Shown: piece by piece, positions 12,671 to 45,783 of the stretch
How positions within the stretch are numbered: the stretch's first letter is position 1
How the letters are laid out: each line of letters begins with the position of its first letter
IMG/VR virus record: IMGVR_UViG_3300030060_000625
Coordinates: 1-53,690 of that record
Strand: one strand, 5' to 3'
DNA: 53,690 bases
From: a virus
Lineage: Duplodnaviria > Caudoviricetes
Translations under genes and position numbers: made by a program
The notes under the pieces: model-generated
Told to the model about the DNA's origin: nothing
Database searches by the model: none
The model's input: only the letters and a program-made list of their open reading frames with translations

Positions 12671-12876
12671 TCCTTACCGTATTTAGATACCTTGCCTCCG
12701 TAGGCATATTTACGTCCACGATACATCATGCCGCCGCCCATCATCTTCTTGGGTTTGATCATGCCGCCGCCCATCATCTTCTTAGGTTTCTTTTTCATCT
12801 GCGCGGCTGCAGTTTTCATCGGTTCCGTTTTGTTACCGTCATTGTCAATGTCAATATAATCTGGTTTCATAGCCAT
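12667..12876 (-). CDS. Small basic protein with DIDNDG and repeated KPKKMMGGGM motifs (69 aa)
   Basis: AAGGA Shine-Dalgarno; ATGA overlap with the downstream gene. Confidence 0.7.
   Translation of the reverse strand: MAMKPDYIDIDNDGNKTEPMKTAAAQMKKKPKKMMGGGMIKPKKMMGGGMMYRGRKYAYGGKVSKYGKD
12725..12789. repeat. 33-bp-period tandem duplication inside the 69-aa gene
   Basis: ATCATGCCGCCGCCCATCATCTTCTT at 12725 and 12758, each followed by RGGTTT. Confidence 0.9.
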
Positions 12877-13404: not shown

Positions 13405-14043
13405 CTATTTACCCCATTCTTTCTTCAGGTAATTCTGTACAAGAACAGATTTGGTAAAAATTTGCGGTGCTTCTTTATTCTGTGATAAAAATTGATTTAC
13501 CTCATATAGATTTTTTAGTATGAAATATTGTTGATACGAAATATTAGAAGACATCCAACCTAGTATGTTTGTTCTAACTCCAGAGGTTACTTTTGTAACA
13601 CCGTGGGGATACGTGATAGGAAAGATAGCTGCTTGCCCCATCTCCAGTTTTCTAGAAATAACGCCCAACTCTGTTTCAAAGAATATCTCTCCACCTTCAT
13701 AGTTGTCATCCAGATTAATAGTAAAACCATAGTCAAAGAAGATATTATTGGATTTTGGACTTGCTTTAAAATTGTCAACATGAAGATTGTAGTAGTCTCC
13801 TTCTTCGTATCTGTTATAATAATTTACTGAAACTCTGTTGGGACAATACACTGTATCAACGTAGTGTGTGTCGTACATTTTAGAGATAATCAGTTTGCGT
13901 ACTTCATCTGGTACACTCTGTGATTCTTTGTTTTTCTTGATACCTGATATTGGTTGCGTTTCGTTACCGTCACCAAAAGTATCTTTAGTAATTTCATTGT
14001 AGCAGAAATCTGCTTCTTCTTTATTGAGTAGCTGTATAAACAT
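13405..14043 (-). CDS. 2OG-Fe(II) oxygenase, PKHD-type hydroxylase-like (212 aa)
   Basis: YEEGDYYNLHVD (HxD), YEGGE, YPHGVTKVTSGVR (distal His and Arg). Confidence 0.9.
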   Translation of the reverse strand: MFIQLLNKEEADFCYNEITKDTFGDGNETQPISGIKKNKESQSVPDEVRKLIISKMYDTHYVDTVYCPNRVSVNYYNRYEEGDYYNLHVDNFKASPKSNNIFFDYGFTINLDDNYEGGEIFFETELGVISRKLEMGQAAIFPITYPHGVTKVTSGVRTNILGWMSSNISYQQYFILKNLYEVNQFLSQNKEAPQIFTKSVLVQNYLKKEWGK

Positions 14044-15609: not shown

Positions 15610-16515
15610 TTATAGAGAATCTACTACTCGCCCATCTTTAGCTGCTTTGTCTATATCCTTTTCAAGAGCAGCATATTCATGGGGTTTTAGTTTAGAGATT
15701 TCATCAATAGTCCAAACTTTTGTGTCGTCTTGCAGTTCTTCAATATAACGCCGTTGTTGCGTTTTTGTAACTGCTTCAGCCGCACTACGTTTAGGTTGTT
15801 GTTGATTACTCTTTGTAGTAGCTCTCCTCTTTGACCTCGTTTTAGAGGAAATACCTTTATCTGCTTTGTACAAGTCAATAACTCTTGCGGCCCATTTAGC
15901 ATCAGTATTATTTTTATAGATACCATCTGAGATAGTAGAAGGTTGTTCGTCAAGCCAGTTAAGAAAATCATCACTACTTTTTAGATTACCGAAATCAGAG
16001 TGCATTGTTAGAAGTTCTTGTTCTGCAGTTTGCACAACAGCTTCTTGCTCTTTAATTTTAAGGTCTTCTAAGCGTGACTCAATATCTTTGACTCGATCAC
16101 TTGCCTTCAAAGCTGAGATAGTTTCAACAACATCGTAAACATCTGGATACTTTTCACGGAACTCTGTCAACTCTTCCTCTGTCTTGGGCAGCACTGGTAA
16201 TTCACTAGATTTTTCTGCCATCGAAAGTTGGGCTTCAAGAAGTTCTTGTTGCTGTTTCCATTCGTTTAGTTTGTTGTCGTAATGCTTCTTTAAATCACCA
16301 TAACGTTTTTTATAGTCATGTTCATTTTCAGCATTACCTTGTCTATCTACCAGACCCTGCTTTTTAGGTTTCGGAGTAGCCATATCAATTGGGTCTTCCA
16401 CCTCGTCATCGTCTGGTTCATCTAAGCTATTCCTATACTGATTCTCGTATGGGGTAGGCTCAAGTTCTTCGTTGTACTCCTCTTCTAAAGCTATATCATC
16501 ATTACGTACAGTCAT
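15610..16515 (-). CDS. Capsid scaffolding protein (301 aa)
   Basis: Acidic coiled coil with YKKRYGDLKKH; C-terminal IDKAAKDGRV; immediately upstream of the MCP. Confidence 0.8.
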   Translation of the reverse strand: MTVRNDDIALEEEYNEELEPTPYENQYRNSLDEPDDDEVEDPIDMATPKPKKQGLVDRQGNAENEHDYKKRYGDLKKHYDNKLNEWKQQQELLEAQLSMAEKSSELPVLPKTEEELTEFREKYPDVYDVVETISALKASDRVKDIESRLEDLKIKEQEAVVQTAEQELLTMHSDFGNLKSSDDFLNWLDEQPSTISDGIYKNNTDAKWAARVIDLYKADKGISSKTRSKRRATTKSNQQQPKRSAAEAVTKTQQRRYIEELQDDTKVWTIDEISKLKPHEYAALEKDIDKAAKDGRVVDSL

Positions 16516-16654: not shown

Positions 16655-17137
16655 TTAAAGGAACATCTGATAAAATTCAGAATTACGATGTTCCAATTCT
16701 TTTACTTCGCCATAACCATTGCGATAGTATCTCTTATATTCCTTGTGCATTGTTTCCGTATCATTATCTATAGCTGCAGCTACAAACTTAGGAAACTTAC
16801 GTAGTCCGTTTGCACCAAGGTTAAAAACAAAATCAGTAAACATTTCTTTACAGTTTTGCGGAAGGCTGTCAAAGTCACCACTGGCGTATTCAGAAATAAC
16901 ATTACTAGCACCATCGCAAGCATTAAGTATATCATGTATTAGTAACTTCTCTATTTCGTCGTTACTAACACCCTCTTGCATCCATTCTTCGCTGTCTAGT
17001 AGTTTGTGTCCGTAACCAATAGTGTCGTTACCGCCTTCTGGTGATTTGTGCGGATACCATGTACCATCTTGAAAACCAGCTTTACCGCCGTTCTCGACAC
17101 ACTTAATATATTCTATAAATTGTCCACGTATTTCCAT
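16655..17137 (-). CDS. Lysozyme / endolysin (GH24, T4-lysozyme-like, 160 aa)
   Basis: N-terminal Glu, DTIGYGHKL and DFVFNLG...FPKF motifs. Confidence 0.85.
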   Translation of the reverse strand: MEIRGQFIEYIKCVENGGKAGFQDGTWYPHKSPEGGNDTIGYGHKLLDSEEWMQEGVSNDEIEKLLIHDILNACDGASNVISEYASGDFDSLPQNCKEMFTDFVFNLGANGLRKFPKFVAAAIDNDTETMHKEYKRYYRNGYGEVKELEHRNSEFYQMFL

Positions 17138-19851
17138 TATGCCGCCCTAGCTACAAAACCACCATTTTGCATACCACCAATTCCTAAGAAAATATGACTT
17201 TTTATTTTAACATTTTCTACCATGTCTTTTGCCCAAGATGGTGGTTTTATTGTTTTAAAATTATAGTAGTGCGTAGACCCTTTAGTAATGTCAGGTAATT
17301 CACCTTTCATTATTTTATCAGCATCTTTTACAGCATTTTGAAATACTTTATCTTTATAATTTACTTTCATCATAGTTTTAAAGTTTTCGTATCTTGGACC
17401 CTTATAAGTTTCTGGGTCATCTAAATCAGGAAGTAATGCTGAAAACTGATGTTTTTTTGTAATAATTTCATTAATGTTTTTTCCAAATCTTTTTGGATAT
17501 TTTAAACGGTTTTTCATAACGTGCATAACAGCTTGCATACCTTCGCGGTCTTGATTTCTTGCCTCACCAATCGCTACTATGGCCATTAAAGCTAAGTCGG
17601 GAAGATCTTTTAAAGTCTGCATAGCTTGTTTAGCTTTAGCCATTTCTTCTGTTGGCATAGGTTTTTCTGGTTGACCAATGATATCTCCTAGTGTTTTATC
17701 ATCACCACCTATTCCCTCATCAGAATACGGTTCAGGAGTTGCCATAGGCTCTGTTCGTTTTTGCATAAACGGGTCTGGCCCTGCAGGTAATGGAGATGGT
17801 GATTCAGGAATATCTGAATATACTTCATCTCCTGCTTCAGGCATAGCTACACCTCCTGGTTCAGTTCCAATAGCGTACCCCTGTGGCGCAGCAAAACCTT
17901 GTTGTACAACACGGCCCATTGGGTCAACCATTGGAGGTTGTTGTGCTTGCCTACGTGTGCGCTCAAGAGCTTGCATTTGATTATAAGCAGAAGGTGATTG
18001 TTGTGACGCATCAGCTTCTAGCACTGCAGCACTTGTTTGCATTTGTTTCTTTTGCGGATCATCTACAAACCCGCCTTGTTGCATCATTGGTGCTTGGGGT
18101 GCTGAAGCTGCCTGTGCTGGTGCTGGTGCAGGTTGTGCTTCAGCCATAGGCTGCTGCTCCTGCATAGATGGTTGTTTTTCTTCTTCAAGACGCTTACGCA
18201 GGTCGAGACCTTCTTGCCTGATTTTATCAAGATACTTTTTGCCACCGCCAAAGAACGGCACAAGCATTTTAGGAATGTGGTATTCATAGTTACTTACTTT
18301 AATTGGTACATCATCAGTCGGGTCTAGGTCTGTGCCTTTAAGATTAACGCCGTTCTTCATTGCTAGGTCGATAGCTTCTTTAGCGTAACGGTTGAGGTCT
18401 TTTAGACCAACTAGTAATACTGTCTCATAGGGTAGAATGTAGTCACCTGCATCAGCTTCGCGTGGTATGTCGTCCTTCACAGACACTGCACCGCCCTGTT
18501 GTGGTTGCGCTGCTTGTTCGTTGATCATGCCAAGGTTGGACATGTCGGCTTCTGCACCCTGTGGTGCCATGCCGCCATCTTGCATTTTAATAACACCACC
18601 GTCTTTCCACCAACCTCCAGGGTCGTCCATACCTATATCTTCACCACTTAAACCACTGCCTGGACTGTCATCCATGCCGCTGTCTTGGGAGCCGCCTCCA
18701 ATATCAATATCTTGTTGTTCTTGTTCTTTAGTGAAAGCTGCTGCTTCTTTTGATAGCGCATCGTATTCTTCGTCTAGCTCACGGTCAAAACCATCGGGTC
18801 TGTCTAAAGCTCTAACTATAGCAGCATTTTGTCTAGCTCTTTCTGCGTTATCAGAAGTTATTGACTTCCAACTGCCTTCTCTTTGGTTTACAATTCTTTC
18901 AGCTAACAAGGGATCAGTCATTGTTAAATCTTTAAAAGCATCATATGTACCCATTGCTGAAGTTCGACCAGCGGCATCTACATACGTACCATCTCTTTGG
19001 TAGCCCTCAAGAAATCCACTTCTACCTCCTGGCTCCATAGCATCAAAACCAGCGGTTGTTAGTAATTTATTAATACCTCTAAATAAAATATTATTGTTAT
19101 CTCTCTCAGCAGCAATACGGTCGTATTCTTCTATGGATATAGCTTTACCTGTGCGATAATCTACTGGCTCACCAGCATTATTCATATGAGTGATACCTTG
19201 TTGAAAAGCTGCAATTTGATCATCGTTTAGAATACCCCTTGAAATCATATCATCAATTTGATCTGTAGTGTATCCATCTAAAGCAGTGTATACGTTTTCA
19301 GATTGAGCCAAATTTAACATAGTTGTCCCAGGAGCCATTAACAATCCAGGTATTGTTGCTAAAGTAAAATCAGGATTAGCTATTGGTTCAGCATAATTTG
19401 TTGCTTCATCTGAAGGGCCAGGACCACCCTCATCGACAGCCTCACGTTGCGTTTGTATAACAGATTTAGGTGCAGTAACTGACTCTACAGCAGGTGCGGG
19501 TGCGGCTGATTCTGTAGATGCTTGTTGAGCTAACGACATTCTTTTAGAAAAAGAACCAAAAGGAGATGATGTAAATGTGTTAAGACCGCTGGGCATTAAA
19601 CCTGATTTTGTTGCCGTGCGATAAAATTTTTGTGCCGAAACACCTTTAGGAACATCAGGTAATAGCTCGTCTTGACGGACGGCTACTCCTTCATTTATTT
19701 TTTCAACAATTTCAGGCCAAGAAAGTTTTTTCTTACCAGAAACAGAAGACCTAATACCTTGTGGTGTTATTGTTCCAGGTTCAATAGTTGTACCTGTAGA
19801 TTCTGTTAGTGCGTCTTCAAATTGTTGAGCGATTTCCTCTAGTGTTGCCAT
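17137..19851 (-). CDS. Large low-complexity protein with a C-terminal SleB-like (Hydrolase_2) cell-wall hydrolase domain (904 aa)
   Basis: AIGEARNQ...GMQAVMHVMKNR...HQFS...GSTHYY...PSWA...IKSHIF is the SleB/Hydrolase_2 signature with catalytic Glu. Confidence 0.8.
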   Translation of the reverse strand: MATLEEIAQQFEDALTESTGTTIEPGTITPQGIRSSVSGKKKLSWPEIVEKINEGVAVRQDELLPDVPKGVSAQKFYRTATKSGLMPSGLNTFTSSPFGSFSKRMSLAQQASTESAAPAPAVESVTAPKSVIQTQREAVDEGGPGPSDEATNYAEPIANPDFTLATIPGLLMAPGTTMLNLAQSENVYTALDGYTTDQIDDMISRGILNDDQIAAFQQGITHMNNAGEPVDYRTGKAISIEEYDRIAAERDNNNILFRGINKLLTTAGFDAMEPGGRSGFLEGYQRDGTYVDAAGRTSAMGTYDAFKDLTMTDPLLAERIVNQREGSWKSITSDNAERARQNAAIVRALDRPDGFDRELDEEYDALSKEAAAFTKEQEQQDIDIGGGSQDSGMDDSPGSGLSGEDIGMDDPGGWWKDGGVIKMQDGGMAPQGAEADMSNLGMINEQAAQPQQGGAVSVKDDIPREADAGDYILPYETVLLVGLKDLNRYAKEAIDLAMKNGVNLKGTDLDPTDDVPIKVSNYEYHIPKMLVPFFGGGKKYLDKIRQEGLDLRKRLEEEKQPSMQEQQPMAEAQPAPAPAQAASAPQAPMMQQGGFVDDPQKKQMQTSAAVLEADASQQSPSAYNQMQALERTRRQAQQPPMVDPMGRVVQQGFAAPQGYAIGTEPGGVAMPEAGDEVYSDIPESPSPLPAGPDPFMQKRTEPMATPEPYSDEGIGGDDKTLGDIIGQPEKPMPTEEMAKAKQAMQTLKDLPDLALMAIVAIGEARNQDREGMQAVMHVMKNRLKYPKRFGKNINEIITKKHQFSALLPDLDDPETYKGPRYENFKTMMKVNYKDKVFQNAVKDADKIMKGELPDITKGSTHYYNFKTIKPPSWAKDMVENVKIKSHIFLGIGGMQNGGFVARAA

Positions 19852-20077
19852 CTTTATGTGCCTTTATGGTAGCTTGTGTAGCATCCTTTAGGTTAATTAA
19901 GGTTCCCAGTAAATCCAGCTTGCCCTGGAGACGGCGCAGTTCCAATTCCGATTCCACCACCACCAACTGCCGTGTCATCATTTGGGCCATTTCCTTGAGG
20001 TAGCTTTCCAGCCCCTGCCATTCCAGGTTGCTGTTGGCCAGAGGCAGCAGCTTCTGGGCTTGCTCCTTGTTGATCAT
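19817..20077 (-). CDS. Hypothetical helical protein (86 aa) overlapping the portal 3' end
   Basis: AAGGA Shine-Dalgarno; ELRRLQGKL pattern typical of small post-portal genes. Confidence 0.65.
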   Translation of the reverse strand: MINKEQAQKLLPLANSNLEWQGLESYLKEMAQMMTRQLVVVESELELRRLQGKLDLLGTLINLKDATQATIKAHKDGNTRGNRSTI

Positions 20078-22031
20078 TAGGCATGAGTCCTTTTAATACT
20101 TCTGCAAAAATTGCTGCATCGTTTATGTCGTTTACTAGTAAGTCTGGTTCGATATCTTGACTTATTGCAAGCTCTCGAATCAGGTTTGGTATTTTTATAA
20201 ACGGTGCCAGCATCGGATTCGCAACTGTCTGGAGCAAAGCTGTTAATCGTTGGGTGCGTACTTCCTTTTGTATTACTGCACTGGTTCCTTTTGGTTTAAT
20301 TTCTAGATCACCAATCATTTCTGGTGTCTTGTCGTTAAACTGCATGTTCCACTGAAAGAAAGCTTCTCCTAGTGGTTTAAGAAGAAAGTCATCAATGTTC
20401 TTGATAACAGTCTTTACGCTAAGTCCTGCGCTAGACATCAACATGCTTAGTCCAGCAGCAGTTCGTCCTGTTCCTGTAACACCAGTCTGACCATGTATAA
20501 TAGACGGTATGCCTGTCTGCTCGTCAGCAAGTTGCCTTGCCTTGTCAAACATCTGCACGTTCTCTACTGCAGTGCTAGGAAACTTAATGCCGTTCACGGC
20601 TGTGCCTGTAACACCAGACTGCCGCCTAAATATCTTACCTGGGTATACGTCCATTGTTTGACCAGGAACAAGCTGTGTTTCGTCTATGTCAAACACAAGA
20701 TTACCTGCCAATGCTAGGTTGTCGATAGCCATACGAATGTGACCATTCATTAGCATTTGGCTATCTTCCATGTTCTCTGCTACGCCTACACCAAACAACT
20801 GGTAGGGATTGAGTTCATACGGGAAAGCTTGAAACGGTATACGTGCAGGAATAAACGGATTGGCTACGAACCGTAGTATCTCGTTGCCAGATATCCATAT
20901 GTTTACTTGGACGGCATCGCCTTGCTGAATTTCTTTCGGAGCTTCGATACCAAGCTCTTCAGCGAACTTAGCGTCCATCGCACCCCAATACTCGTATACT
21001 TCAAAACGCCGTCCTTGATAGTTAGGATCATCGTCATTAGCATAGAGAGTGCTTTCATAATATTTTTCTTCATAGTTAGGTCCACCTTGTAAAACATTTT
21101 CTATTGCTTCTTCGTTAAAGAAAGGGCGATTACCTAGATCACGTATCTGCTCCCTATTCATGCGGTGTCGTTGAATAACGTAATCTGCATCTCCTAAACT
21201 TGTAGCACTTGGGTCGGGATAAAAGTCCCAGCAACTTACTGCTTCGACGCGAGGTACAACCTTGTTTGCAGGGGAGTATTCACCGTTCTGCCAATTGTGT
21301 ACTGTTTTGTTGTAATTGAATGGACCTTTTATTATTCCTGTGCCAAGCAGCGCACACTCAAATATAGCGTGACGTAATACAGTAACAGCGTTAGTGTCTA
21401 GTAGCTGGTCCTGTATGCACGTTTCCATGTTACGTGCTGTTTCTGCTGCAGGACTAATTTGTGGTTCTCCTGCGCGAGAGGGACCAGAAGCTAAGTTAGC
21501 CCCTTCGTACCTATCTTCAAGACCACTAAGCATTGCCGCTGTTGGTCCTTGTGGACCTTGTTGCATCTCTGTAGCTTGTGTAGCACCTGGAAGCAGTTCT
21601 CTACCGTCACCTTCGTAACCAAATAGATCAGTTTGTTCTGGCTGTCTTTCCTCTATTGGAATTTGAGACAAGTGGGCAAACTTGTCGATACCCTCTGGTA
21701 TTGGTGTAGATTCAACAGAGATAGGAAACTTGCTGTTAGCAAATAGTATGTCAATAATTTGACCATACGCAGCAAGAACCTTCGTCTTTGTTATCTTTAC
21801 AAAAACTTGGCTACGCTCGTTGTCACGATACTGCGTAGTAGAGTCGTAGATACCACGATAGTTCTTGTAGGCTTTTAGCCACCGATCTTCGTCGTTTCTA
21901 CGTCCTGTCTCTGCATCTGAAAACCGTGCCTTAACAGTACCAATAATACTGTTAAAGTCTTCACGGTTCTCACCAAGGTCTATTAGCCCTTCTGTCTCTT
22001 CGTCTTCGTCTAGAAAAGATTCGTCAGCCAT
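19893..22031 (-). CDS. Portal protein (712 aa)
   Basis: WLKAYKNYRG, FVKITKTKVLAAYGQI, WDFYPDP, GTGRTAAGLSML; size and position after TerL. Confidence 0.88.
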   Translation of the reverse strand: MADESFLDEDEETEGLIDLGENREDFNSIIGTVKARFSDAETGRRNDEDRWLKAYKNYRGIYDSTTQYRDNERSQVFVKITKTKVLAAYGQIIDILFANSKFPISVESTPIPEGIDKFAHLSQIPIEERQPEQTDLFGYEGDGRELLPGATQATEMQQGPQGPTAAMLSGLEDRYEGANLASGPSRAGEPQISPAAETARNMETCIQDQLLDTNAVTVLRHAIFECALLGTGIIKGPFNYNKTVHNWQNGEYSPANKVVPRVEAVSCWDFYPDPSATSLGDADYVIQRHRMNREQIRDLGNRPFFNEEAIENVLQGGPNYEEKYYESTLYANDDDPNYQGRRFEVYEYWGAMDAKFAEELGIEAPKEIQQGDAVQVNIWISGNEILRFVANPFIPARIPFQAFPYELNPYQLFGVGVAENMEDSQMLMNGHIRMAIDNLALAGNLVFDIDETQLVPGQTMDVYPGKIFRRQSGVTGTAVNGIKFPSTAVENVQMFDKARQLADEQTGIPSIIHGQTGVTGTGRTAAGLSMLMSSAGLSVKTVIKNIDDFLLKPLGEAFFQWNMQFNDKTPEMIGDLEIKPKGTSAVIQKEVRTQRLTALLQTVANPMLAPFIKIPNLIRELAISQDIEPDLLVNDINDAAIFAEVLKGLMPNDQQGASPEAAASGQQQPGMAGAGKLPQGNGPNDDTAVGGGGIGIGTAPSPGQAGFTGNLN

Positions 22032-22045
22032 TGTAACTCTTTCTT

Positions 22046-22279
22046 TTAGCTGTAGATGCCTTGTTTGTCAGAAGCCATAATCATGGAGGCTTGACCCATG
22101 TGCTTGTTACCAGCTTCCGAAGGTGCATCTTCTGTGAGCTTGCCTACGTTAATTGTGGTGTTGAACTCTAGCGGCTCACGATATAGTGATGCCTCGTTTG
22201 CGTCAGACATTTCGCCTTGCTTGCTCATCTGGCCCATGATGTAGCCAGCCTTGTATGCTTGTGGATTACCTTGTGGCAT
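22046..22279 (-). CDS. Hypothetical protein (77 aa)
   Basis: Strong AAGGAG Shine-Dalgarno; fills the gap before the portal gene. Confidence 0.7.
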   Translation of the reverse strand: MPQGNPQAYKAGYIMGQMSKQGEMSDANEASLYREPLEFNTTINVGKLTEDAPSEAGNKHMGQASMIMASDKQGIYS

Positions 22280-22293
22280 TTACTTTCTCCTTT

Positions 22294-24834
22294 TTAATTA
22301 GGTCTGTTTGCGAAGTACCCTCTGTACCTCTGTGTTAGAGACTCACTCTCAAATTTGTCTTCAGCCTCTTGAACCATTTGACTTCGTTGTTGTGCAAATG
22401 GTGCTACCGTTTGTTTAGACCTACTTAGTAGTTCTTCTCTAGTAGGACTAAACAGTTGTCTTGATTTTGTTCCTGCAGAATCAACTACAGCCTCTCTTTG
22501 ACGACCTGCTAGTTCCCGCTGCATCTTATCTGTTAGTGCTTCTTCTGTTGCATCGCGATTAACAAAACGTTGTGGACTTCCAGGTGCAGCCATGCCTGTT
22601 TCTAAACTTTCCATTAGCTGCTCTGATTCTAAATCTTCTTCTGCTACACCTGCAGTTGTTGCATCAAAGGCAAACTCAGCCGCTTCTGCACCTTTAGCTA
22701 ATAGCCCTACTGTGCCGCCAGCAATAATAGGAGCTACTGTCTTAATTATTTTAGGAATAAGTTTTGGAAAATCTGCTCTTCGTTTTGCATTTATATCTTG
22801 TCTAAATAACTCTTGTTCTCTCGGCGTTAGATTATCGTAGTCATCTGCTTCTTCTTGTGTGATGTACTTTCCTACGTATATCTGAGGATTATATTTAAAG
22901 ACAGTTTTAGGTTTCTCTTCAGGCAGAGCCTCACCCATCTGTTGTTGTGTGGGTGTAGTTGGTTTTTTTTGTTGTCGTTTTCTTTCTGCTGCTTCTTCTT
23001 GTGCTGCTATAAACTCTGGGTCGTTTGATATTTCAAGTATTTGTTTTTGCGTCTCTAGAGTTTCTAAGTCAATATCTGCCGCTGCTTTTTGCATTTTTGA
23101 AGCGTTGAGTCTGCTTTCTGCATCTAGTGCTTCCTTTTGTGCTTCTGTTAAAGGAACTGGTTTTTGTTTTTCTCTAGCTATCTGTCCAGTTTCAACAGTT
23201 TCCTCTAAAGGATCTACTATCTGTATGCCTTCAGAAAGACCAGAAGTATCTATATTTAATCTTGTAGGAAGAAAATCTAACGTTGGAGATTCGCTATACC
23301 AAGCAATCATATTTTCTATGCCTTGCAAAGCATCTCTCGTAAGATTTTTTTGAAGACCTTTTACAGGTGAGATATAATGTCCTCTTGTTATACCTGCAAG
23401 CCCTACAACATCTACCAATCCAGCAGAACCCTCTGTGTGTCCCATAACTTGACTTATAAGAGTACCTGCCATACCGTCTGGAAGACCTGAAGCCTTAACA
23501 GCTAAAGAGGGGAATATTTTTCTCCAATCAGACGGACCTTTTATAGACCTACCAAATGTATCTTTAAATTCTTGATCTAATATGTACTTTATCTTTTTTG
23601 TTTCTAAATTGCTTGCTAAAACTTTTTTTCCGTCTACTGTTACATATCTTGGAGAAAAAGCAGTTCTAACTTCATCAAGAGTAACAGAGAAAATTTTAAA
23701 ATTATCGTATTCTTTTCTTAATTTAGGATCGTTAATAAGTTCTGCTACAGTTTGCCCTTCTGAACCATACTGTTCTATAAATCTTGCATCTGCTCTTTCT
23801 TTAGCAGAACGTAAAATAGCACTTCCTAAATCGCCTATTTCAGACTTAGCTCTTGTTTTTTGACCTCTGCCATATTCTGTAATTGTAAAGATATCTCCAG
23901 CCCTTACGTCAGCGTTAGTTAGATTTATTGTTTCTCCTATTCTTTCTAATGTCATTGCGTTAAGACTTAGTATCGCTCTAATATCTTGAGTTTTAGTAAC
24001 GTCTATAGGGCCAGGAACAAGTTTTCCTGTTTTATCTTTTGAGTATTTAAAATATTGTAATTCGTTTATACCGTCTACAATACGAGGTATTATATTTCCT
24101 GGCTCTGGAATTTCATCAAATGCAGCAGAGAATCTACCTTGAAAAGCAATGGTTCTTGTTTTAGGTTTTCTTGTTTCAGAATCTTTTCCTGTTTGTAATG
24201 CTGTGCTTGAACCTTTATACTCTGTACCTTTTTCAGCGTTAGCGTCAAAATCTCTAACATCAAAACTTCTGGCAATGCCTTTATCACCCGTGATGCGTAA
24301 CCCCTCGCCAACAGTAAAGGGATATGATAGTCCTTTAAATTCGCTTCTGTTAGAACTTTTAACATTTGTAAAAAATTTTTGAGCGTTGTCTTCAACACCC
24401 ATGAAACCACCGCTATTAAAAAATGGAGCCTTTATTAAAGGGTGTTCCATTAACTCAAATACGCTATCTCTAGTAGCGAGATTAGAAAAAGGTGTATCTA
24501 GCGATTTCCCCATACCCTCAAATAGGTCAGTGGCTCTATTGACATACTTATCCCCAGCGCGTTCAGCCGCTGTTAAAAATTCTCTAATGGTCGCATCACC
24601 AGAAGATAATCTTTTAGCAAGATCAACATCGCTGATTTCTACAGGTTTAAATTTTCTTGTTTTTGAAGGTTCTGGTGCTTTTCTACGGGGTATGCTAAAA
24701 GACGGGTATTGTTTTGTATCATCTGTCGGCATTGTAAATAGACCTTTCGGTCCCTTGCCAATGCTTCTTTTTACTTCAGCAAGAGAAACCCTTCTATCGG
24801 GTATAAAGGAGGAAGATTTTTTATCGTCTGCCAT
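22294..24834 (-). CDS. 846-aa protein with a central tyrosine-recombinase-like catalytic domain
   Basis: R298 (LNAMTLERIGETINL), K326, S435-x-x-R438 (PSDWRKIF), H466 (ISQVMGH), Y487 (ITRGHY) in canonical order; start overlaps the TerL stop. Confidence 0.7.
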   Translation of the reverse strand: MADDKKSSSFIPDRRVSLAEVKRSIGKGPKGLFTMPTDDTKQYPSFSIPRRKAPEPSKTRKFKPVEISDVDLAKRLSSGDATIREFLTAAERAGDKYVNRATDLFEGMGKSLDTPFSNLATRDSVFELMEHPLIKAPFFNSGGFMGVEDNAQKFFTNVKSSNRSEFKGLSYPFTVGEGLRITGDKGIARSFDVRDFDANAEKGTEYKGSSTALQTGKDSETRKPKTRTIAFQGRFSAAFDEIPEPGNIIPRIVDGINELQYFKYSKDKTGKLVPGPIDVTKTQDIRAILSLNAMTLERIGETINLTNADVRAGDIFTITEYGRGQKTRAKSEIGDLGSAILRSAKERADARFIEQYGSEGQTVAELINDPKLRKEYDNFKIFSVTLDEVRTAFSPRYVTVDGKKVLASNLETKKIKYILDQEFKDTFGRSIKGPSDWRKIFPSLAVKASGLPDGMAGTLISQVMGHTEGSAGLVDVVGLAGITRGHYISPVKGLQKNLTRDALQGIENMIAWYSESPTLDFLPTRLNIDTSGLSEGIQIVDPLEETVETGQIAREKQKPVPLTEAQKEALDAESRLNASKMQKAAADIDLETLETQKQILEISNDPEFIAAQEEAAERKRQQKKPTTPTQQQMGEALPEEKPKTVFKYNPQIYVGKYITQEEADDYDNLTPREQELFRQDINAKRRADFPKLIPKIIKTVAPIIAGGTVGLLAKGAEAAEFAFDATTAGVAEEDLESEQLMESLETGMAAPGSPQRFVNRDATEEALTDKMQRELAGRQREAVVDSAGTKSRQLFSPTREELLSRSKQTVAPFAQQRSQMVQEAEDKFESESLTQRYRGYFANRPN

Positions 24835-26477
24835 CAGTAACCAAATACACTATCTGCGGGTTGAAACGAATCTTTCTTAATCTGATTAAATATGCTGTTT
24901 TGTGGTAAGCCTGTAGGTCGTGTCATGCACATATACCTTAAAGCATCGTAAGCGTGGTCATCTGCCTTCGTATCTACATCTTCACTGTTAGTCTTAGACA
25001 ACGGTATAGTAGGTAGAGTCCGTATGAGGTTGGTACACGTTGAGAATATCTTTAGTTTTGGTTCGTCTGTTCTCTCGTCTACTGCTAACCGTCGATGTAG
25101 TTCTATCTTTCCTGGTATTCTATTCTTATCTGCTGGAATCCATCGTGTTCCGTTACGTATCATAGTCTCAGCTATGCTTGGCCCTGTGCCGTGCTTTGAC
25201 CAACAAGCTCCATCTAACACAGAAATCTGCATGAGGGGATCATGTTCCTCTAATGCGTTGATTATTCGTGCCAGTGTCTCTCCTGTGTAGCCTTTGTCGT
25301 ACAGTTCTCTGTAAATCCAGATGTTTCCATCCCAATCTACAGCACCCCAAAGTACGCAACTAGGACTGCTATAACCATAGTCGGCTGCTCGTAGTCTAGG
25401 CCAGTTATATGGAACCTCAAACGGTTCAACAACGTGTTTTGACCTGTCAAACTCTGAGAAAGCAGCCCCATCCGCAACATCCCAGTCTCCTTCTAGCAGT
25501 CTTCTGCGCTCTACTTCAGGAAGAGACAGCAACATTGCCTCGTATTCGCCGCTCTCCATCAAAAACGGGTTATCTGTTAGTCTCGCAGGTATAAACCGTC
25601 TCTGATATAGTGGTTGATCTGCATTTGTTGGGTGATTTGGCCCGTAACGTAGAATATTACCACTATCTATGTCCGTAGCCCAAAATGGGTCATTGGGGAC
25701 CGCTGGGTCTACGAACATTTTCTTTAACCACCACCCACCTACACCTCCAGGGTTGGCAGAAGCTCTCATATACGTCTGTATCTCTGGGTCTGTGGTACGT
25801 AAACGAGAGCGAAGGTAGTTCCAAACGTATGGTGTAGGGTATTGACCCAGTTCATCTACACCAATCCACGTAAAACTCTGTCCTTGGTAGCGTGTAACGT
25901 CATTATCCTTGTCAACATAACTAAAAAGAGCCGTAGCACCGCTAGGAAAGGACCATGTATTCTTAGATTCTCTAAAAACTGCCCCTGGAAATGCCTTTGG
26001 ATACAGTTTCCGTGATTGATCTATTAGCTCTGTTAGCTCTGCCAGTGTCCGTCTTAGTAATAACGCTCTGTGGTTGCCGTTTGAGGCGTAACGTAAGAGG
26101 TCTACCAGCATTGCAAACGATTTACCGCCACCTGCAGCCCCACCATATAGCACTTCTTTCTCTGGTGCGGCTAGAAAGTCAACTTGTGGCCCTTTGTTGG
26201 GCCTAAAAACAACCTCTGTGTTCTCCTCAATTGACTCTCGTATGTCTTTGGGAAGTGATTTTATAAATTCTTGTGTTGTTGCACCACCAGAACTAGCTAT
26301 TTTCTGCCCATTTACCTGCTTAGTTTTGGTTTGTTGTAGTTTTTCTACCTTTTTCTCTAGAGCTTCTTGCTGTTTCTTGGCATCTCGTAGCTTACGCTGT
26401 GCTTCTTGCTTCTTTTTGCGTACACGGGATACGTTGTAACGGCCTTTTTCTCCTGGCTTTAGCTTGGGTCTTGCCAT
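24834..26477 (-). CDS. terL: Terminase large subunit (547 aa)
   Basis: Walker A YGGAAGGGKS, Walker B IGVDE, SANPGG coupling motif, nuclease DYG and DDHAYDALRY. Confidence 0.95.
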   Translation of the reverse strand: MARPKLKPGEKGRYNVSRVRKKKQEAQRKLRDAKKQQEALEKKVEKLQQTKTKQVNGQKIASSGGATTQEFIKSLPKDIRESIEENTEVVFRPNKGPQVDFLAAPEKEVLYGGAAGGGKSFAMLVDLLRYASNGNHRALLLRRTLAELTELIDQSRKLYPKAFPGAVFRESKNTWSFPSGATALFSYVDKDNDVTRYQGQSFTWIGVDELGQYPTPYVWNYLRSRLRTTDPEIQTYMRASANPGGVGGWWLKKMFVDPAVPNDPFWATDIDSGNILRYGPNHPTNADQPLYQRRFIPARLTDNPFLMESGEYEAMLLSLPEVERRRLLEGDWDVADGAAFSEFDRSKHVVEPFEVPYNWPRLRAADYGYSSPSCVLWGAVDWDGNIWIYRELYDKGYTGETLARIINALEEHDPLMQISVLDGACWSKHGTGPSIAETMIRNGTRWIPADKNRIPGKIELHRRLAVDERTDEPKLKIFSTCTNLIRTLPTIPLSKTNSEDVDTKADDHAYDALRYMCMTRPTGLPQNSIFNQIKKDSFQPADSVFGY

Positions 26478-27095: not shown

Positions 27096-27299
27096 TTACT
27101 TCTTCTTCATGGCCTTGCGTTTAGCGATGGCACCACCCTTGGACATATACTTCGTACCCTTCTTGGCTACGCCGCCCTTGGACATGTACTTGCTCTTCTT
27201 CTTACCAGCTACGGCTCCACCACGGGCCATGCCCTTGCTTTTCTTCTTAGGCACAGTGCCGCCCTTTGCCATATACTTACTTTTCTTTTTTGCCGCCAT
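27096..27299 (-). CDS. Lys-rich histone-like protein with four M[AS][KR]GG repeats (67 aa)
   Basis: GAGGA Shine-Dalgarno; repeats KYMAKGG, KGMARGG, KYMSKGG x2. Confidence 0.75.
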   Translation of the reverse strand: MAAKKKSKYMAKGGTVPKKKSKGMARGGAVAGKKKSKYMSKGGVAKKGTKYMSKGGAIAKRKAMKKK

Positions 27300-27963
27300 T
27301 TTTAGTATCCTCAGAATAAAGGTTGTTAAAAGTAATATTCGGATTCATATAACTGTTGTCTATCTCTGCCGAATGTATATACTGACTTGGTGCAAAGTCA
27401 GGAGCGCCCTCTCCAGTAACCCACAGTGCGGGATTCGTAACTCGTACCCTGTTATTAGGAAGTGCTATGATGTTGCCTGTGAACGGTCCAGCGTCTATTA
27501 GTTCTAACACATGAGATTGTTTGTGCTGTGCTGGGTCGTCAGATATGTAGCTGTCGGTGTAGTCCACCGTAAACATATATCTTCCTGTATAAAACTCTCC
27601 GTCTATCTTACACAGCCAAGGACTAGAGGACACTCTGTCCATAACAACAATAGCGTGATTTCTAGAAGAGCAGTCCCAAGGTTGGGCTAAGTGTGTGGGC
27701 ATCAACTCAGGCCACTCATCTAACACGGTATCTGCTACCATTGCAGTAATTGGCATCCTGGCCCACATTGCGCCACCGTGTACATTCTCTTCTTCGTCAC
27801 AACCTGTAAACACAACGTTAAAACTTAAACACCTATCTGGTATTGTGTTTACGGCTATTGCTAGTGCGTGTAAGTATTCTCCTTGATATTCTTGGTGATT
27901 GTTTGTAAATTCTTTTCGTACCCAACATTTAAAATGTGGGATGTTAGAAGCGAGGTATGTCAA
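27277..27963 (-). CDS. Conserved hypothetical phage protein (228 aa)
   Basis: HGGAMWARMPI, AQPWDC, YMFTVDY, HKQSH, ALPNNR pattern recognised from marine phages; function unknown. Confidence 0.75.
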   Translation of the reverse strand: MTYLASNIPHFKCWVRKEFTNNHQEYQGEYLHALAIAVNTIPDRCLSFNVVFTGCDEEENVHGGAMWARMPITAMVADTVLDEWPELMPTHLAQPWDCSSRNHAIVVMDRVSSSPWLCKIDGEFYTGRYMFTVDYTDSYISDDPAQHKQSHVLELIDAGPFTGNIIALPNNRVRVTNPALWVTGEGAPDFAPSQYIHSAEIDNSYMNPNITFNNLYSEDTKNGGKKEK

Positions 27964-27965
27964 AT

Positions 27966-28259
27966 TTAATCATCCATAAATTTTGATTTCCGTACACTAC
28001 CACCCGCTGCATATTGTTTTACATAGCCGCCACTATACATGTCACCGACTAATTTATCTTCCATCATACGTTCTTTACGAAAACGCCCTGCTTCTAGTTT
28101 TTGTTCTAGTTCTCCAACAGTAAGCTTGTTAGCATTGTTAGGCACAGGAATATTTTCTTTTTCCATTGCATCAATAATTGCTGCTTTCTGACTAACGGGG
28201 TCTTCAGGTCTTCCCTGTGTCCTGTCAGCTTCTAGTGCTTCTGCCTCATCTGCCATCAC
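27966..28259 (-). CDS. Hypothetical protein (97 aa) with two C-terminal xxGG motifs
   Basis: Coupled to TerS; MYSGGYV and YAAGGSV. Confidence 0.7.
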   Translation of the reverse strand: MMADEAEALEADRTQGRPEDPVSQKAAIIDAMEKENIPVPNNANKLTVGELEQKLEAGRFRKERMMEDKLVGDMYSGGYVKQYAAGGSVRKSKFMDD

Positions 28260-28675
28260 TCTGCTTCCTGTTCGATTATAATCTCTTTAGGTTTGTCTTT
28301 AGAAGGTAACATGACTATGCCGTGCATAACCTGTCCTTCTACTTCTAACTGTTGTTTCTTGCCAAGGCCAACTCTGTCAAGAACGGACTCTGCAGTTTTA
28401 AGGCGCATGTCCATTTGGTTTAACGGAATGGTGCCGTCTGCATCTAGTCCCTCTATAATACGATTAGCAGCCTTAACAGAGTTTGTTGCAAGCATACTAC
28501 GAGTACGCTCTATAATTTCGTCACGCAGTGACCTTGTTAACCAAGACCTAGATTGTTCTTTGTATCCAGCAGCAGCAACAGCGTTCTTAACATGACCACC
28601 GTTAGATAGTAACTCGTCAAGAAACCTCTCTTGTTTATCTGTTAACTTCCGTTTTTGTGTGGCTGGCAAGCTCAT
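28256..28675 (-). CDS. terS: Terminase small subunit (139 aa)
   Basis: LTDKQERFL...GGHVKNAVAAAGY helix-turn-helix; AESVLDRVG; first large gene of the packaging operon. Confidence 0.8.
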   Translation of the reverse strand: MSLPATQKRKLTDKQERFLDELLSNGGHVKNAVAAAGYKEQSRSWLTRSLRDEIIERTRSMLATNSVKAANRIIEGLDADGTIPLNQMDMRLKTAESVLDRVGLGKKQQLEVEGQVMHGIVMLPSKDKPKEIIIEQEAE

Positions 28676-29031
28676 GTTTAAGTTTGTTTATTCTTTTTTG
28701 TTGTCTTGTATTGTGTTTAAGTCTAGGAGCGTGTATATCTTTTGTTATATTATTTAGTACTTGCTCTAACTTTTGCCACAAACAGAAACGAAATCCCCCT
28801 GTTTGTTTTATAAGTTAACACCTGTATACTATGGAATTTGCGCGAACAGCAATGTACGTCTTAGTGTGTCACTGGAGTTTCGTCTTACGAACTGCGATCT
28901 CAACAATAACAAAAAAAGAAAATCTACATTACCATTCGCGCAAAACACTAAATGTTGGTGGAGAACATTTCCTTTGGTAAAATATAAATAATTATACTTG
29001 GTTGGATATGAACTTTTCCACCATGTATACC

Positions 29032-29059
29032 ATTATAACGTTGTATACGGGTTTGTCAA
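29032..29059 (-). promoter_or_regulatory. Sigma70-type promoter facing the late operon
   Basis: TTGACA-aacccgtatacaacgt(16)-TATAAT on the minus strand. Confidence 0.8.
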
Positions 29060-29070
29060 GAAAAAAATGC

Positions 29071-29098
29071 TTGACAGATTGCTCTGGAGCATTATAAT
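29071..29098 (+). promoter_or_regulatory. Sigma70-type promoter, divergent partner
   Basis: TTGACA-gattgctctggagcat(16)-TATAAT with an upstream A-tract. Confidence 0.75.
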
Positions 29099-29520: not shown

Positions 29521-29552
29521 AAAAAAGAACCCCATAGCGTGAACTATGGGGT
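29521..29552 (-). terminator. Rho-independent terminator ending the early minus-strand block
   Basis: Perfect 9-bp stem ACCCCATAG/CTATGGGGT, 6-nt loop, followed on the minus strand by TCTTTTTT. Confidence 0.85.
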
Positions 29553-29579
29553 CAAGGTTCAGGGAGGTATTCGGTAACG

Positions 29580-31648: not shown

Positions 31649-31810
31649 TAAATTTTATTAGATTGTCACGTTCTAGGCTTGGCTTATCGTGTTGCAAGCG
31701 GAGCGGAGCGAGGCGGCGGCGGCGACCGAGAAGCGGCGACGGAGCGAAACACCGACCGACCCGACTACGGCATCGCTCTGTGTTACGCCCCGCCCCATAA
31801 TAAAGTAATA

Positions 31811-31952
31811 GGCTGACAATTTTGTATTAGGCTGACAATTTTATTTTGTAATGGGCTGACAATTTTGTAACTCACCTTCAATAATTTCCCAGGAAAATTC
31901 ATATGCGGCATCCCAATTTAACCAGCCCTCATGATCACATAAATTGTCAGCC
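31811..31952. repeat. GGCTGACAATTT motif cluster A (three direct copies, one inverted)
   Basis: Copies start at 31811, 31830 and 31854; inverted AAATTGTCAGCC at 31941-31952. Confidence 0.9.
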
Positions 31953-34312: not shown

Positions 34313-34549
34313 CTACTTCTTACTTTCTTTTGTTGCAATACGTTGTAGACTGTCGTTCAATCTTTTAATTCTTCTGTAAGCGTCTTGCAAGTCACTCTGA
34401 AGATTGTAAACGTTATCACGCAAGACACGCAACTCATCATAGTCAGACTGGCTGACAATTTTCTTTTCAGGGCTGACAATTTGTTTTTTAGGGCTGACAA
34501 TTTGTTTTATGCGGCTGACAAAATTCTTTATGAGGCTGACAATTTTCAT
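34313..34549 (-). CDS. Hypothetical coiled-coil protein (78 aa) whose 5' half is a 21-bp tandem repeat
   Basis: KIVS/QIVS heptapeptide repeats followed by a coiled coil; ATGA coupling upstream. Confidence 0.55.
   Translation of the reverse strand: MKIVSLIKNFVSRIKQIVSPKKQIVSPEKKIVSQSDYDELRVLRDNVYNLQSDLQDAYRRIKRLNDSLQRIATKESKK
34450..34546. repeat. GGCTGACAA motif cluster B: five copies at exact 21-bp period
   Basis: Copies start at 34450, 34471, 34492, 34513 and 34534, separated by T-rich linkers. Confidence 0.92.
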
Positions 34550-35571: not shown

Positions 35572-35592
35572 GCATTTATTGAATAAAAAATC

Positions 35593-35657
35593 TTACCAGT
35601 TATACCTCACTGTAGGCACTGAATAGTAAAATGTTACCAGTTATACCTCACTCTAGG
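35593..35657. repeat. 24-bp direct repeat (23/24 identical) upstream of the DNA polymerase gene
   Basis: TTACCAGTTATACCTCACTGTAGG at 35593 and TTACCAGTTATACCTCACTCTAGG at 35634. Confidence 0.92.
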
Positions 35658-42343: not shown

Positions 42344-42569
42344 TCCCGTCAACAGCCCAGAACATTACAATAAGCTTGATGTTGAGGCTATAGATTTAAT
42401 AGAGATGTCTATGACGAGGAATGAGTTTTTAGGATATTTAAAAGGTAACGTGTTAAAGTATATAATTAGATACAGGCACAAAGGCAAAGCCGCAGAGGAC
42501 TTAGGAAAGTGCGTATGGTATCTTACGAGGTTAAAGGATAGAGTAGAAGATGCAAAACCTACCAACTGA
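42318..42569 (+). CDS. DUF3310 protein (T7 gp1.7-like putative nucleotide kinase, 83 aa)
   Basis: DPVNSPEHY...EAID...GYLKGNVLKYIIRYRHKG...EDLGKCVWYL. Confidence 0.85.
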   Translation: MKMTTEEHDPVNSPEHYNKLDVEAIDLIEMSMTRNEFLGYLKGNVLKYIIRYRHKGKAAEDLGKCVWYLTRLKDRVEDAKPTN

Positions 42570-45375: not shown

Positions 45376-45783
45376 TTACTTCTTCTTCATGTTATTACGT
45401 TGCACACCCTTCCACTTCTCTGCAGTACGCATACCACCAAGTCCCAAGAGAGCGAGTGTTAACGACATAAGACCTTCTGTCTCTATGTAGGGCAGCACGA
45501 TATCTGCACCACTAAGAGCAATACCCCACACTGCTACAGGCTGCAGCACAAACTGCCAAGCTAGACCAAAGGCGCATATCCACATGATAGCTGGCCTAGC
45601 ACCAGCAACAAAGATAGATGGTGACTTAGCTTGTTCTATGTTTGCTTGTGCCTGTGCTAGATCAAGCGATACCATTTGTTGTTTTAGTTCAGCATTAAGT
45701 TTAGTCTTTAGGTCTTTGTCCTCAACAAACTTGTCAAGAACTTTACCTGCTACGCCTATAACTGAATCTGCTAATCCTAACAT
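45376..45783 (-). CDS. Holin (GTA_holin_3TM-like, 135 aa)
   Basis: LDKFVEDKD...FVAGARPAIMWIC...LLGLGGMRTAEK. Confidence 0.8.
   Translation of the reverse strand: MLGLADSVIGVAGKVLDKFVEDKDLKTKLNAELKQQMVSLDLAQAQANIEQAKSPSIFVAGARPAIMWICAFGLAWQFVLQPVAVWGIALSGADIVLPYIETEGLMSLTLALLGLGGMRTAEKWKGVQRNNMKKK

Follow-up and report, generated by a model that had tools for sequence, protein, structure and literature searches.

The DNA analysed here is IMG/VR virus record IMGVR_UViG_3300030060_000625, taken in full (53,690 nucleotides (nt); hereafter, the window), and the element in question is a single gene, here called X (protein P0001; 22294..24834, minus strand), which encodes 846 amino acids (aa) between the genes for TerL and the portal. 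From the list of open reading frames (ORFs), the translation, the homologues, and the predicted fold, X was identified as a tyrosine recombinase with long terminal extensions. It holds an invariant position among the packaging genes of one uncultured group of phages, and its recombinase core is exchanged as a cassette between a constant N-terminal tail (N-tail) and a constant C-terminal module (C-module), the latter being found also on proteins that have no recombinase domain. We tentatively favour the view that X is an active recombinase tied to the packaging or head module of the phage.

Fold, active site, and family of the X protein

The reading frame of X opens with ATG. An earlier reading of this DNA, made from the letters alone (the sequence-only reading), had placed a tyrosine-recombinase catalytic domain at about residues 285–490, which correspond to nt 23365–23982. 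A scripted check found the proposed residues R298, K326, S435, R438, H466, and Y487 all where they had been placed, together with the motifs LNAMTLERIGETINL (residues 291–305), PSDWRKIF (434–441), ISQVMGH (460–466), ITRGHY (482–487), and IIAGGTVGLLA (703–713). The catalytic domain proved to be genuine, and it is accompanied by a core-binding domain, so that the full pair is present.

In direct look-ups, P0001 matched no family in Pfam (E ≤ 1), PHROGs, or NCBIfam and none of 50,697 phage records. A sequence search of the PDB with P0001 gave a best match of only E 0.39, in the coiled region, and a PDB profile search with alignment A5 returned nothing beyond a box-I fragment of XerA (E 0.58). Relatives were nevertheless obtained: a word-indexed search with X yielded eight related proteins, and a profile search of 1.84 billion cluster representatives yielded only 63 members at E ≤ 1e-3, indicating that the family is rare. 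Five relatives scored above the PF00589 gathering cut-off of 27.1 bits (P0009, 40.0; P0011, 40.7; P0020, 37.4; P0017, 32.4; and P0016, 29.0 bits), the two at 40.0 and 40.7 bits being 45% and 36% identical to X, and sub-threshold PF00589 matches (E ≤ 0.01) were found in 18 of 40 further homologues. Alignment A1 showed that the catalytic domain of X carries two lineage-specific insertions, at about residues 255–285 and 357–418, and X itself therefore escapes detection by PF00589. The relatives also matched the integrase families phrog_1 and phrog_216. Against the XerC/XerD/XerA equivalogs of NCBIfam, the best scores were 15.9–30.7 bits compared with cut-offs of 220–335, and P0001 had no match.

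The active site was compared in alignment A2, which holds 53 homologues that are 17–94% identical to X; counts refer to the sequences that cover a column. R298 was kept in 50/50 (3 gaps), K326 in 52/52 (1 gap), R438 in 52/53, and H466 and Y487 (codon 23374..23376, the proposed nucleophile) in 53/53, so that one Q at R438 is the single exception. Since alleles that are otherwise only ~20–30% identical keep the catalytic residues unchanged, the Tyr among them, the chemistry can be argued to be under selection. The first His of the HxxR motif is absent, and at position 435 the 53 members have Ser (29), Lys (16), Ala (4), Thr (2), Met (1), or Val (1). Not every enzyme of the superfamily has this His, which is replaced by Lys in topoisomerase IB and by Tyr in telomere resolvases, and its absence therefore does not bar X from membership. 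Y487 lies 21 residues past H466, whereas canonical tyrosine recombinases have ~9–13 residues from His to Tyr, and it sits in a loop-helix within residues 469–496, the sole stretch of the catalytic domain where the predicted local distance difference test (pLDDT) score falls below 50. The 21-residue spacing (residues 466–487, nt 23374–23439) may let the Tyr reach across subunits.

The AlphaFold model of residues 57–540 had a pLDDT of 85.8 and a predicted template modelling score of 0.77. When this model was searched against 48,161 PDB representative chains (VIA), the best 24 rows all belonged to the tyrosine-recombinase superfamily, which places the predicted structure in the breaking-rejoining fold. 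The Staphylococcus aureus integrase 3nkh came first (Z 12.0, 166 residues aligned, root-mean-square deviation 3.5), and further matches were XerA (Z 11.4), IntI (Z 11.0), Brujita Int (Z 10.3), Tn1549 Int (Z 10.0, 260 residues aligned over both domains), and lambda Int (Z 9.0–9.8, a two-domain alignment of 243 residues). The full-length model gave the same superfamily matches, with two-domain alignments to XerH (261 residues, Z 9.2) and IntI (250 residues), and XerH was also the top Foldseek match (E 7.1e-4, probability 1.00). Residues ~78–235 aligned with the integrase N-domains 3nrw (Z 4.8, 83 residues), 3lys (Z 4.7), and 2khv (Z 4.5); these matches are weak alone, but the two-domain alignments to Tn1549 Int, lambda Int, XerH, and IntI back the assignment of a core-binding domain. 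As modelled, residues ~60–540 of X make up a complete integrase/Xer-type recombinase, with core-binding and catalytic domains.

The same search bears on two other kinds of enzyme, both of which now look less likely than the sequence-only reading had allowed. X could be a topoisomerase-IB-like relaxase that relieves torsion during packaging or ejection and performs no site-specific recombination. The type IB topoisomerases 2b9s, 2h7f, 3m4a, 1k4s, and 6z01 have the same fold (Z 8.0–9.6, catalytic domain only), the gene lies beside the packaging motor, and the Lys that 16/53 members have at the first-His position is also found at that position in poxvirus topoisomerase. However, integrases and Xer proteins scored higher (Z 10–12), the N-terminal domain of X matches helical integrase core-binding domains, and the rapid allele replacement of the DNA-binding core, described below, fits sequence-specific recognition better. 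We therefore consider a relaxase very improbable. We find it hardly credible that X is a protelomerase that forms hairpin ends or an invertase of the shufflon type that switches tail-fibre variants. Both would have the fold in common with X, and TelK and TelN are similar to X in size, but TelA, TelK, and ResT reached just Z 6.1, 5.1, and 4.4, and the contig closes on itself through a 99-bp overlap, unlike a linear genome ending in hairpins. As for inversion, the best pairs of long-range inverted repeats in the window were 71–94% complementary and scattered, with no long well-matched pair flanking any segment, and thus no invertible segment was seen.

The remaining parts of X extend the recombinase at both ends. 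The N-tail (residues 1–57; 24655..24834 as residues 1–60) is predicted to be disordered (pLDDT <50 for residues 1–16, 23–52, and 54–57), and it is basic, as had been noticed from the sequence: the first 60 residues hold 14 Lys plus Arg and 7 Asp plus Glu, a net charge of +7. It is followed by the core-binding domain (residues 61–200; 24235..24654), which is helical, SAM-like, and of the integrase N-terminal type (pLDDT ~90), and by the catalytic domain (residues 241–540; 23215..24114), assigned by fold and conservation, with R298, K326, S435xxR438, H466, and Y487. Beyond it, the model has one long helix at residues 564–603 that continues at 606–623 (22966..23145; DSSP helices), in agreement with the coiled coil that had been proposed; it is a probable one. 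A disordered Pro/Thr/Gln-rich linker and helices then lead to the C-module (residues 690–846; 22297..22767), which consists of a Lys-rich lead-in, a Lys-flanked, Gly/Ala-rich hydrophobic segment (residues 698–716), an acidic stretch, charged helices, and a tail ending in YRGYFANRPN. All of these features, like those of the operon below, lie on the minus strand.

X is, as the sequence-only reading had remarked, about twice the normal size of a recombinase. Ordinary tyrosine integrases have ~300–450 aa, and none of the 53 aligned family members is of that size, the family range being 552–890 aa. A C-terminal extension of 170–590 aa past the Tyr is present in 53/53, and hydrophobicity peaks, in most members, in a similar Lys-rich, Gly/Ala-rich segment ~170–220 residues beyond the catalytic Tyr. 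X therefore resembles the tyrosine integrases and Xer proteins (lambda Int, XerA/D/H, IntI, Tn1549 Int; PF00589) in its two-domain architecture, its R-K-R-H-Y site, and its Z scores of 10–12, and differs from them in its length, in having Ser, Lys, or Ala for the first His, in the His-Tyr gap, in the extension, in the location of its gene inside the TerL-portal operon, and in that no att site, repressor, or excisionase was found with it. The kind of enzyme is thus a known one, and X is new in its architecture and gene context; only a demonstration that the virion delivers it would place X in a category of its own.

Invariant gene position and exchangeable core

The window is a complete phage genome. 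Its ends repeat each other exactly over 99 bp (1–99 = 53592–53690), inside an ORF, which indicates a circular assembly and not physical terminal repeats. It encodes a DnaJ-less family-A polymerase match, a gp2.5-like single-stranded DNA-binding protein, a Cas4-like exonuclease, a primase-helicase, a T7-type endonuclease I, and a ribonucleotide reductase, together with TerS/TerL, an SU10-type portal and adaptor, and a P22-like coat. On the basis of this gene content, and because its portal is 46–52% identical to those of the Pelagibacter phages HTVC033P and HTVC103P, the CRP roseophages, and Puniceispirillum phage HMO-2011, the phage is classed as an HMO-2011-type marine podophage, with X present in one uncultured branch.

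The operon that contains X begins with a probable small terminase subunit (28256..28675; phrog_51, E 1.8e-6, and weak PF03592), which is kept upstream of TerL in related loci. A candidate promoter of sigma-70 type, TTGACA-16-TATAAT (29032..29059), faces this operon, called solely from its match to the consensus (12/12). TerL (24834..26477; PF03237, E 7.6e-7; phrog_979, E 2.3e-60) ends directly on X, its stop overlapping the start of X as TGATG, which agrees with the proposed translational coupling. The description of X as wedged between TerL and portal holds for TerL upstream and for the portal downstream, but a 77-aa ORF (p77; 22046..22279) separates X from the portal. This small conserved pre-portal protein has its own AAGGAG ribosome-binding site, and 14 nt lie between X and p77 and again between p77 and the SU10-type portal (19893..22031; PF23899 SU10_portal, E 3.5e-31).

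Related loci were fetched with three sub-alignments (A3, A4, and A5) and two divergent single members. On 65 distinct IMG/VR contigs with an X family gene, TerL was directly upstream in 61, the portal was downstream in 52, and both were present in 50; every contig without one of them beside X is cut at that end. Among 80 metagenome loci, some of which duplicate IMG/VR contigs, TerL was found in 67, the portal in 54, and both in 47, and no locus with room for a neighbour misses it. The order TerL-X-p77-portal was thus invariant in the fetched loci apart from contigs cut there, which answers the synteny check proposed by the sequence-only reading, and it holds also for the most divergent members, P0064 and P0068. 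Across these loci, X was 21–35% identical, compared with ~60% for TerL and ~63% for the portal. This recurring arrangement suggests that the job of X is tied to packaging or delivering the genome rather than to ordinary integration.

In cultured relatives the slot is filled differently. TerL abuts the portal in HMO-2011 and CRP-13, and HTVC033P and HTVC103P have three or four small ORFs between the two genes; none of them has X, and X had no match in the 50,697 phage records. An iterative search with hidden Markov models (HMMs) found the p77 family just before the portal in X loci, in the P0070-type loci described below, and as gp78 of Pelagibacter phage HTVC033P, and p77 is therefore not an X-specific recombination directionality factor.

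Comparison of X with P0009, P0010, and P0011 showed that identity is concentrated at the two ends of the protein. The N-tail (residues 1–35) was 89–97% identical and the C-module 68–87%, compared with 27–29% for the core-binding domain, 31–33% for the catalytic domain, and 22–29% for the coil, and the breakpoints between conserved ends and divergent core differed among the three relatives. The G+C fraction of the X core is 0.35–0.38, compared with 0.45 for TerL and the portal. In loci L055/L056, TerL was 84% and the portal up to 82% identical, and X just 27%. In three marine DNA runs from different studies, contigs were deeper over the flanks of X than over its core. One run held two contigs that join 22299 to 24830 (across the ORF) and 22950 to 24817 (across the core), which is a hint only, given 90% likeness and short sides. 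In RNA run X20, 0/11 contigs covered the X core; these are contigs of relatives, and so have no bearing on expression. By sequence comparison, the recombinase core is exchanged as a cassette between the constant N-tail and the C-module.

The C-module also occurs on stand-alone proteins of 124–199 aa and on P0069/P0070-type proteins. In a sister HMO-2011-type lineage, 14 loci (L079–L092; for example, L081 2118–3290) have P0070-type proteins, with reading frames of 387–476 aa, in the slot that X fills elsewhere, TerL-[ ]-p77-portal. Their C-module is homologous to that of X (HMM E 1e-32 to 7e-44), whereas their N-terminal ~215 aa contain no recombinase domain and no recognisable family. Since the C-module is common to recombinase and non-recombinase slot proteins, the slot encodes a variable payload plus a constant anchor. 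An hhalign comparison of P0070 with the X family was confined to the hydrophobic segment (probability 12%), and IMG/VR held no locus for P0058, a stand-alone C-module. Atlas searches with the N-terminal part of P0070 and the C-terminal part of X gave no usable match, or unnamed viral clusters at 0.78–0.82. A complex prediction for the portal and the X C-module (residues 690–846) scored 0.00 against a mark of 0.32, which counts neither way.

These features could also belong to an internal protein, structural or ejected, whose recombinase-derived domain serves chiefly to bind DNA and which may hold or protect genome ends, as Mu N and T4 gp2 do, strand exchange not being its role. The gene lies in the head module near the portal, the protein has long helical extensions with a Gly/Ala-rich hydrophobic segment, the gene after the portal (17137–19851) carries a cell-wall hydrolase domain typical of ejected proteins, and MrpR, SroF, and Ndc10, which are non-catalytic DNA binders of the recombinase fold, are among the structural matches. 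The invariance of the catalytic residues, the nucleophilic Tyr included, across such divergent alleles speaks for an enzyme instead, and we consider a pure DNA binder improbable.

A serious rival, rather doubtful in our estimation, is that X is a lysogeny integrase, unusually placed and with an accessory C-terminal extension, which recombines attP with a host attB in a temperate branch. Several observations are consistent with this. The best structural matches (Z 10–12) are phage and transposon integrases and Xer proteins, relatives of X match phrog_1 and phrog_216, and no tyrosine recombinase other than X was found in the window or in two relatives with a rated completeness of 100%, where the single PF00589-like match was X. 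Integrase genes typically show strongly divergent alleles within an otherwise conserved backbone. Some HMO-2011-type phages are described as temperate and carrying int (PMC9038755), and in HMO-2011 a canonical int of 292 aa is present and X is not. On the other hand, the canonical int of the group lies upstream of the replication module and not in the packaging operon (PMC9038755), and the int of HMO-2011 was located here at 5.7–6.2 kb, whereas X is translationally coupled to TerL. A Pfam scan of the 61 ORFs of the window, which divergent regulators could escape, found no repressor family, in line with the sequence-only reading, and also no excisionase family and no second PF00589 match, and the window has no tRNA gene. 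Two scans of prokaryotes, run with two alignments on one genome for each of 185,579 species, found no relative; they used four short peptide patterns and are of limited sensitivity, so that integrated copies could be missed. No X-bearing contig among the loci fetched or listed exceeds ~55 kb. Finally, an integrase would not need the extension found in 53/53 members or a C-module common to non-recombinase slot proteins.

The canonical int was also compared with X directly. The 292-aa Int of HMO-2011, from the same group of phages, likewise lacks the first His of HxxR (MDLRR, compared with SDWRK in X), but an hhalign comparison with the X family profile (A5) was not significant (E 0.38). The canonical int of HMO-2011 and CRP-3 differs from X in its position upstream of the replication module (PMC9038755), its normal size, and its lack of an extension.

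Possible role of X in packaging or entry

In the reading that we favour, X would be a catalytically competent site-specific recombinase of the Xer/integrase type, with R298-K326-R438-H466-Y487 as its active site, fixed within the DNA-packaging and head gene module of one uncultured HMO-2011-type branch. Its enzyme core would be held between the short basic N-tail and the ~150-aa C-module specific to the TerL-portal slot, and these termini would tie it to the packaging or head machinery of the phage itself. X would be made along with terminase and portal, would possibly be encapsidated, and would act on the phage's own DNA at packaging or entry. The analysis shows the fold, the conserved active site, the invariant gene order, the exchange of the core, and the common C-module. 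The last three of these support a link to packaging or the virion indirectly; this link, the timing, the DNA substrate, and the reaction are what we infer.

The likeliest reaction would be a site-specific recombination by which the genome, terminally redundant and packaged by the headful, is circularised or resolved, in the manner of Cre/loxP in phage P1. Cre acts on the phage's own DNA, cyclises the terminally redundant headful-packaged genome, and resolves dimers, and lox lies near pac, to which the position of X beside terS/terL can be compared. Unlike X, Cre has 343 aa and is encoded outside the structural operon, its Z score with X was only 7.8, and no lox-like site was found in the X genome; Cre is not known to be packaged. 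A circularisation substrate for X is plausible because the genome assembles as a circle through the 99-bp overlap and because PhiM6, a relative, is predicted to be pac-type and terminally redundant (PMC6256558). Genomes of this type have to be closed into circles once inside the cell. The sequence-only reading had offered the resolution of concatemers as one possible task; for concatemer branches this is less needed, since the genome encodes its own T7-type endonuclease I.

A narrower version of the favoured reading, which we consider unlikely, is that X is encapsidated via its C-module and ejected with the DNA, so that a pre-made recombinase circularises or inserts the incoming genome before phage gene expression, with the core as a swappable specificity cassette. 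Precedents for enzymes and DNA-end binders that are produced alongside the structural proteins and travel with the genome are the N4 virion RNA polymerase, Mu N, T4 gp2, and poxvirus topoisomerase IB. The last has the catalytic fold in common with X, but no sequence or fold relation between X and these proteins was found outside the catalytic domain, and X matched none of the known internal virion proteins in PHROGs or Pfam.

Several points weigh against the view that X serves packaging or entry. Its presence in the virion, or its contact with portal, terminase, or capsid, is something we infer. Its closest folds are integrases and Xer proteins, it is the sole recombinase in these genomes, as expected of a lysogeny integrase, and allelic diversity in a conserved backbone is typical also of integrases that switch attB. 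The operon opens at a perfect host-type promoter, and "late" expression is therefore not established. The gp2.5-like annealing protein, the Cas4-like exonuclease, and the T7-type endonuclease I could circularise the genome and debranch concatemers without X. No cultured phage among the records searched carries X. Last, a search of the window for a target or att site found no convincing core-type inverted repeat, and its short-range inverted repeats are ordinary.

The repeated motif GGCTGACAA was considered as a target of X and rejected: neither HMO-2011 nor three of the four relatives' records contain it, and so it cannot be linked to X. Iteron-like arrays of GGCTGACAATTT occur in the non-coding early region, with five copies at an exact spacing of 21 nt (34450–34546) and three at 19–24 nt (31799–31866). 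They may be operator, origin, or promoter repeats, and the 9-mer is absent from 3/4 related records and from HMO-2011.

In agreement with the suggestion that the system is undescribed, no account of an X-like gene was found in literature searches, which covered part of the literature by title and abstract; the supplementary orthogroup tables of PMC9038755 could list it. According to that paper, HMO-2011-type phages are a dominant group, broadly distributed among marine viral groups, and their subgroups IV to X, which have no identifiable int, are suggested to be obligately lytic (PMC9038755). The branch studied here carries an intact recombinase that is hard to detect, the copy in the window having no Pfam, PHROG, or NCBIfam match, and lifestyle calls that depend on whether an integrase is detected may therefore err in either direction. 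Should X be coupled to packaging, or enter along with the DNA, it would represent a new means by which a phage that packages by the headful secures its genome on entry. Delivery by the virion would make X the first tyrosine recombinase of a tailed phage to be carried in this way, and the position between TerL and portal would be a general cargo slot, in which an anchor carries different payloads (a recombinase or a P0070-type domain). The layout of constant ends and a swappable core would be a case in nature of a site-specific recombinase retargeted by modules, of relevance to the engineering of such enzymes.

Other features of the window

Around the start of the packaging operon, perfect sigma-70 consensus promoters (12/12 each) stand back to back at 29032–29098, facing the packaging operon and the opposite strand, and a strong terminator-like hairpin on the minus strand (11 pairs and a T-run; 29528–29553) lies 450 nt upstream. 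In the leader between the promoter and terS there is a stem-loop with imperfect 19-nt arms (28767–28817), conserved in L002, the sole close relative that could be aligned there; it could be a pac-related element, an RNA element, or a protein site. Within the operon, a protein of the phrog_3704 "ferredoxin" family is encoded at 27277–27963. Directly after the portal comes a 904-aa protein (17137–19851) with a C-terminal SleB-type cell-wall hydrolase domain (PF07486, E 1.7e-14), which is followed by a phage lysozyme (PF00959; 16655–17137), and the two are probably ejected wall-degrading proteins.

Elsewhere, two 30-nt direct repeats (93% identical, 41 nt apart) lie at 35587–35657, in the divergent intergenic region that immediately precedes the DNA polymerase gene, and a 32-nt tandem duplication (97% identical, 33-nt spacing) lies at 12725–12789. 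Two very large ORFs, at 45783–50888 (1701 aa) and 50891–53653 (920 aa), matched no significant Pfam or PHROG family. The scaffold protein is encoded at 15610–16515. Genes of auxiliary type include a 2-oxoglutarate-Fe(II) oxygenase among the structural genes (13405–14043) and the ribonucleotide reductase (42550–44463).

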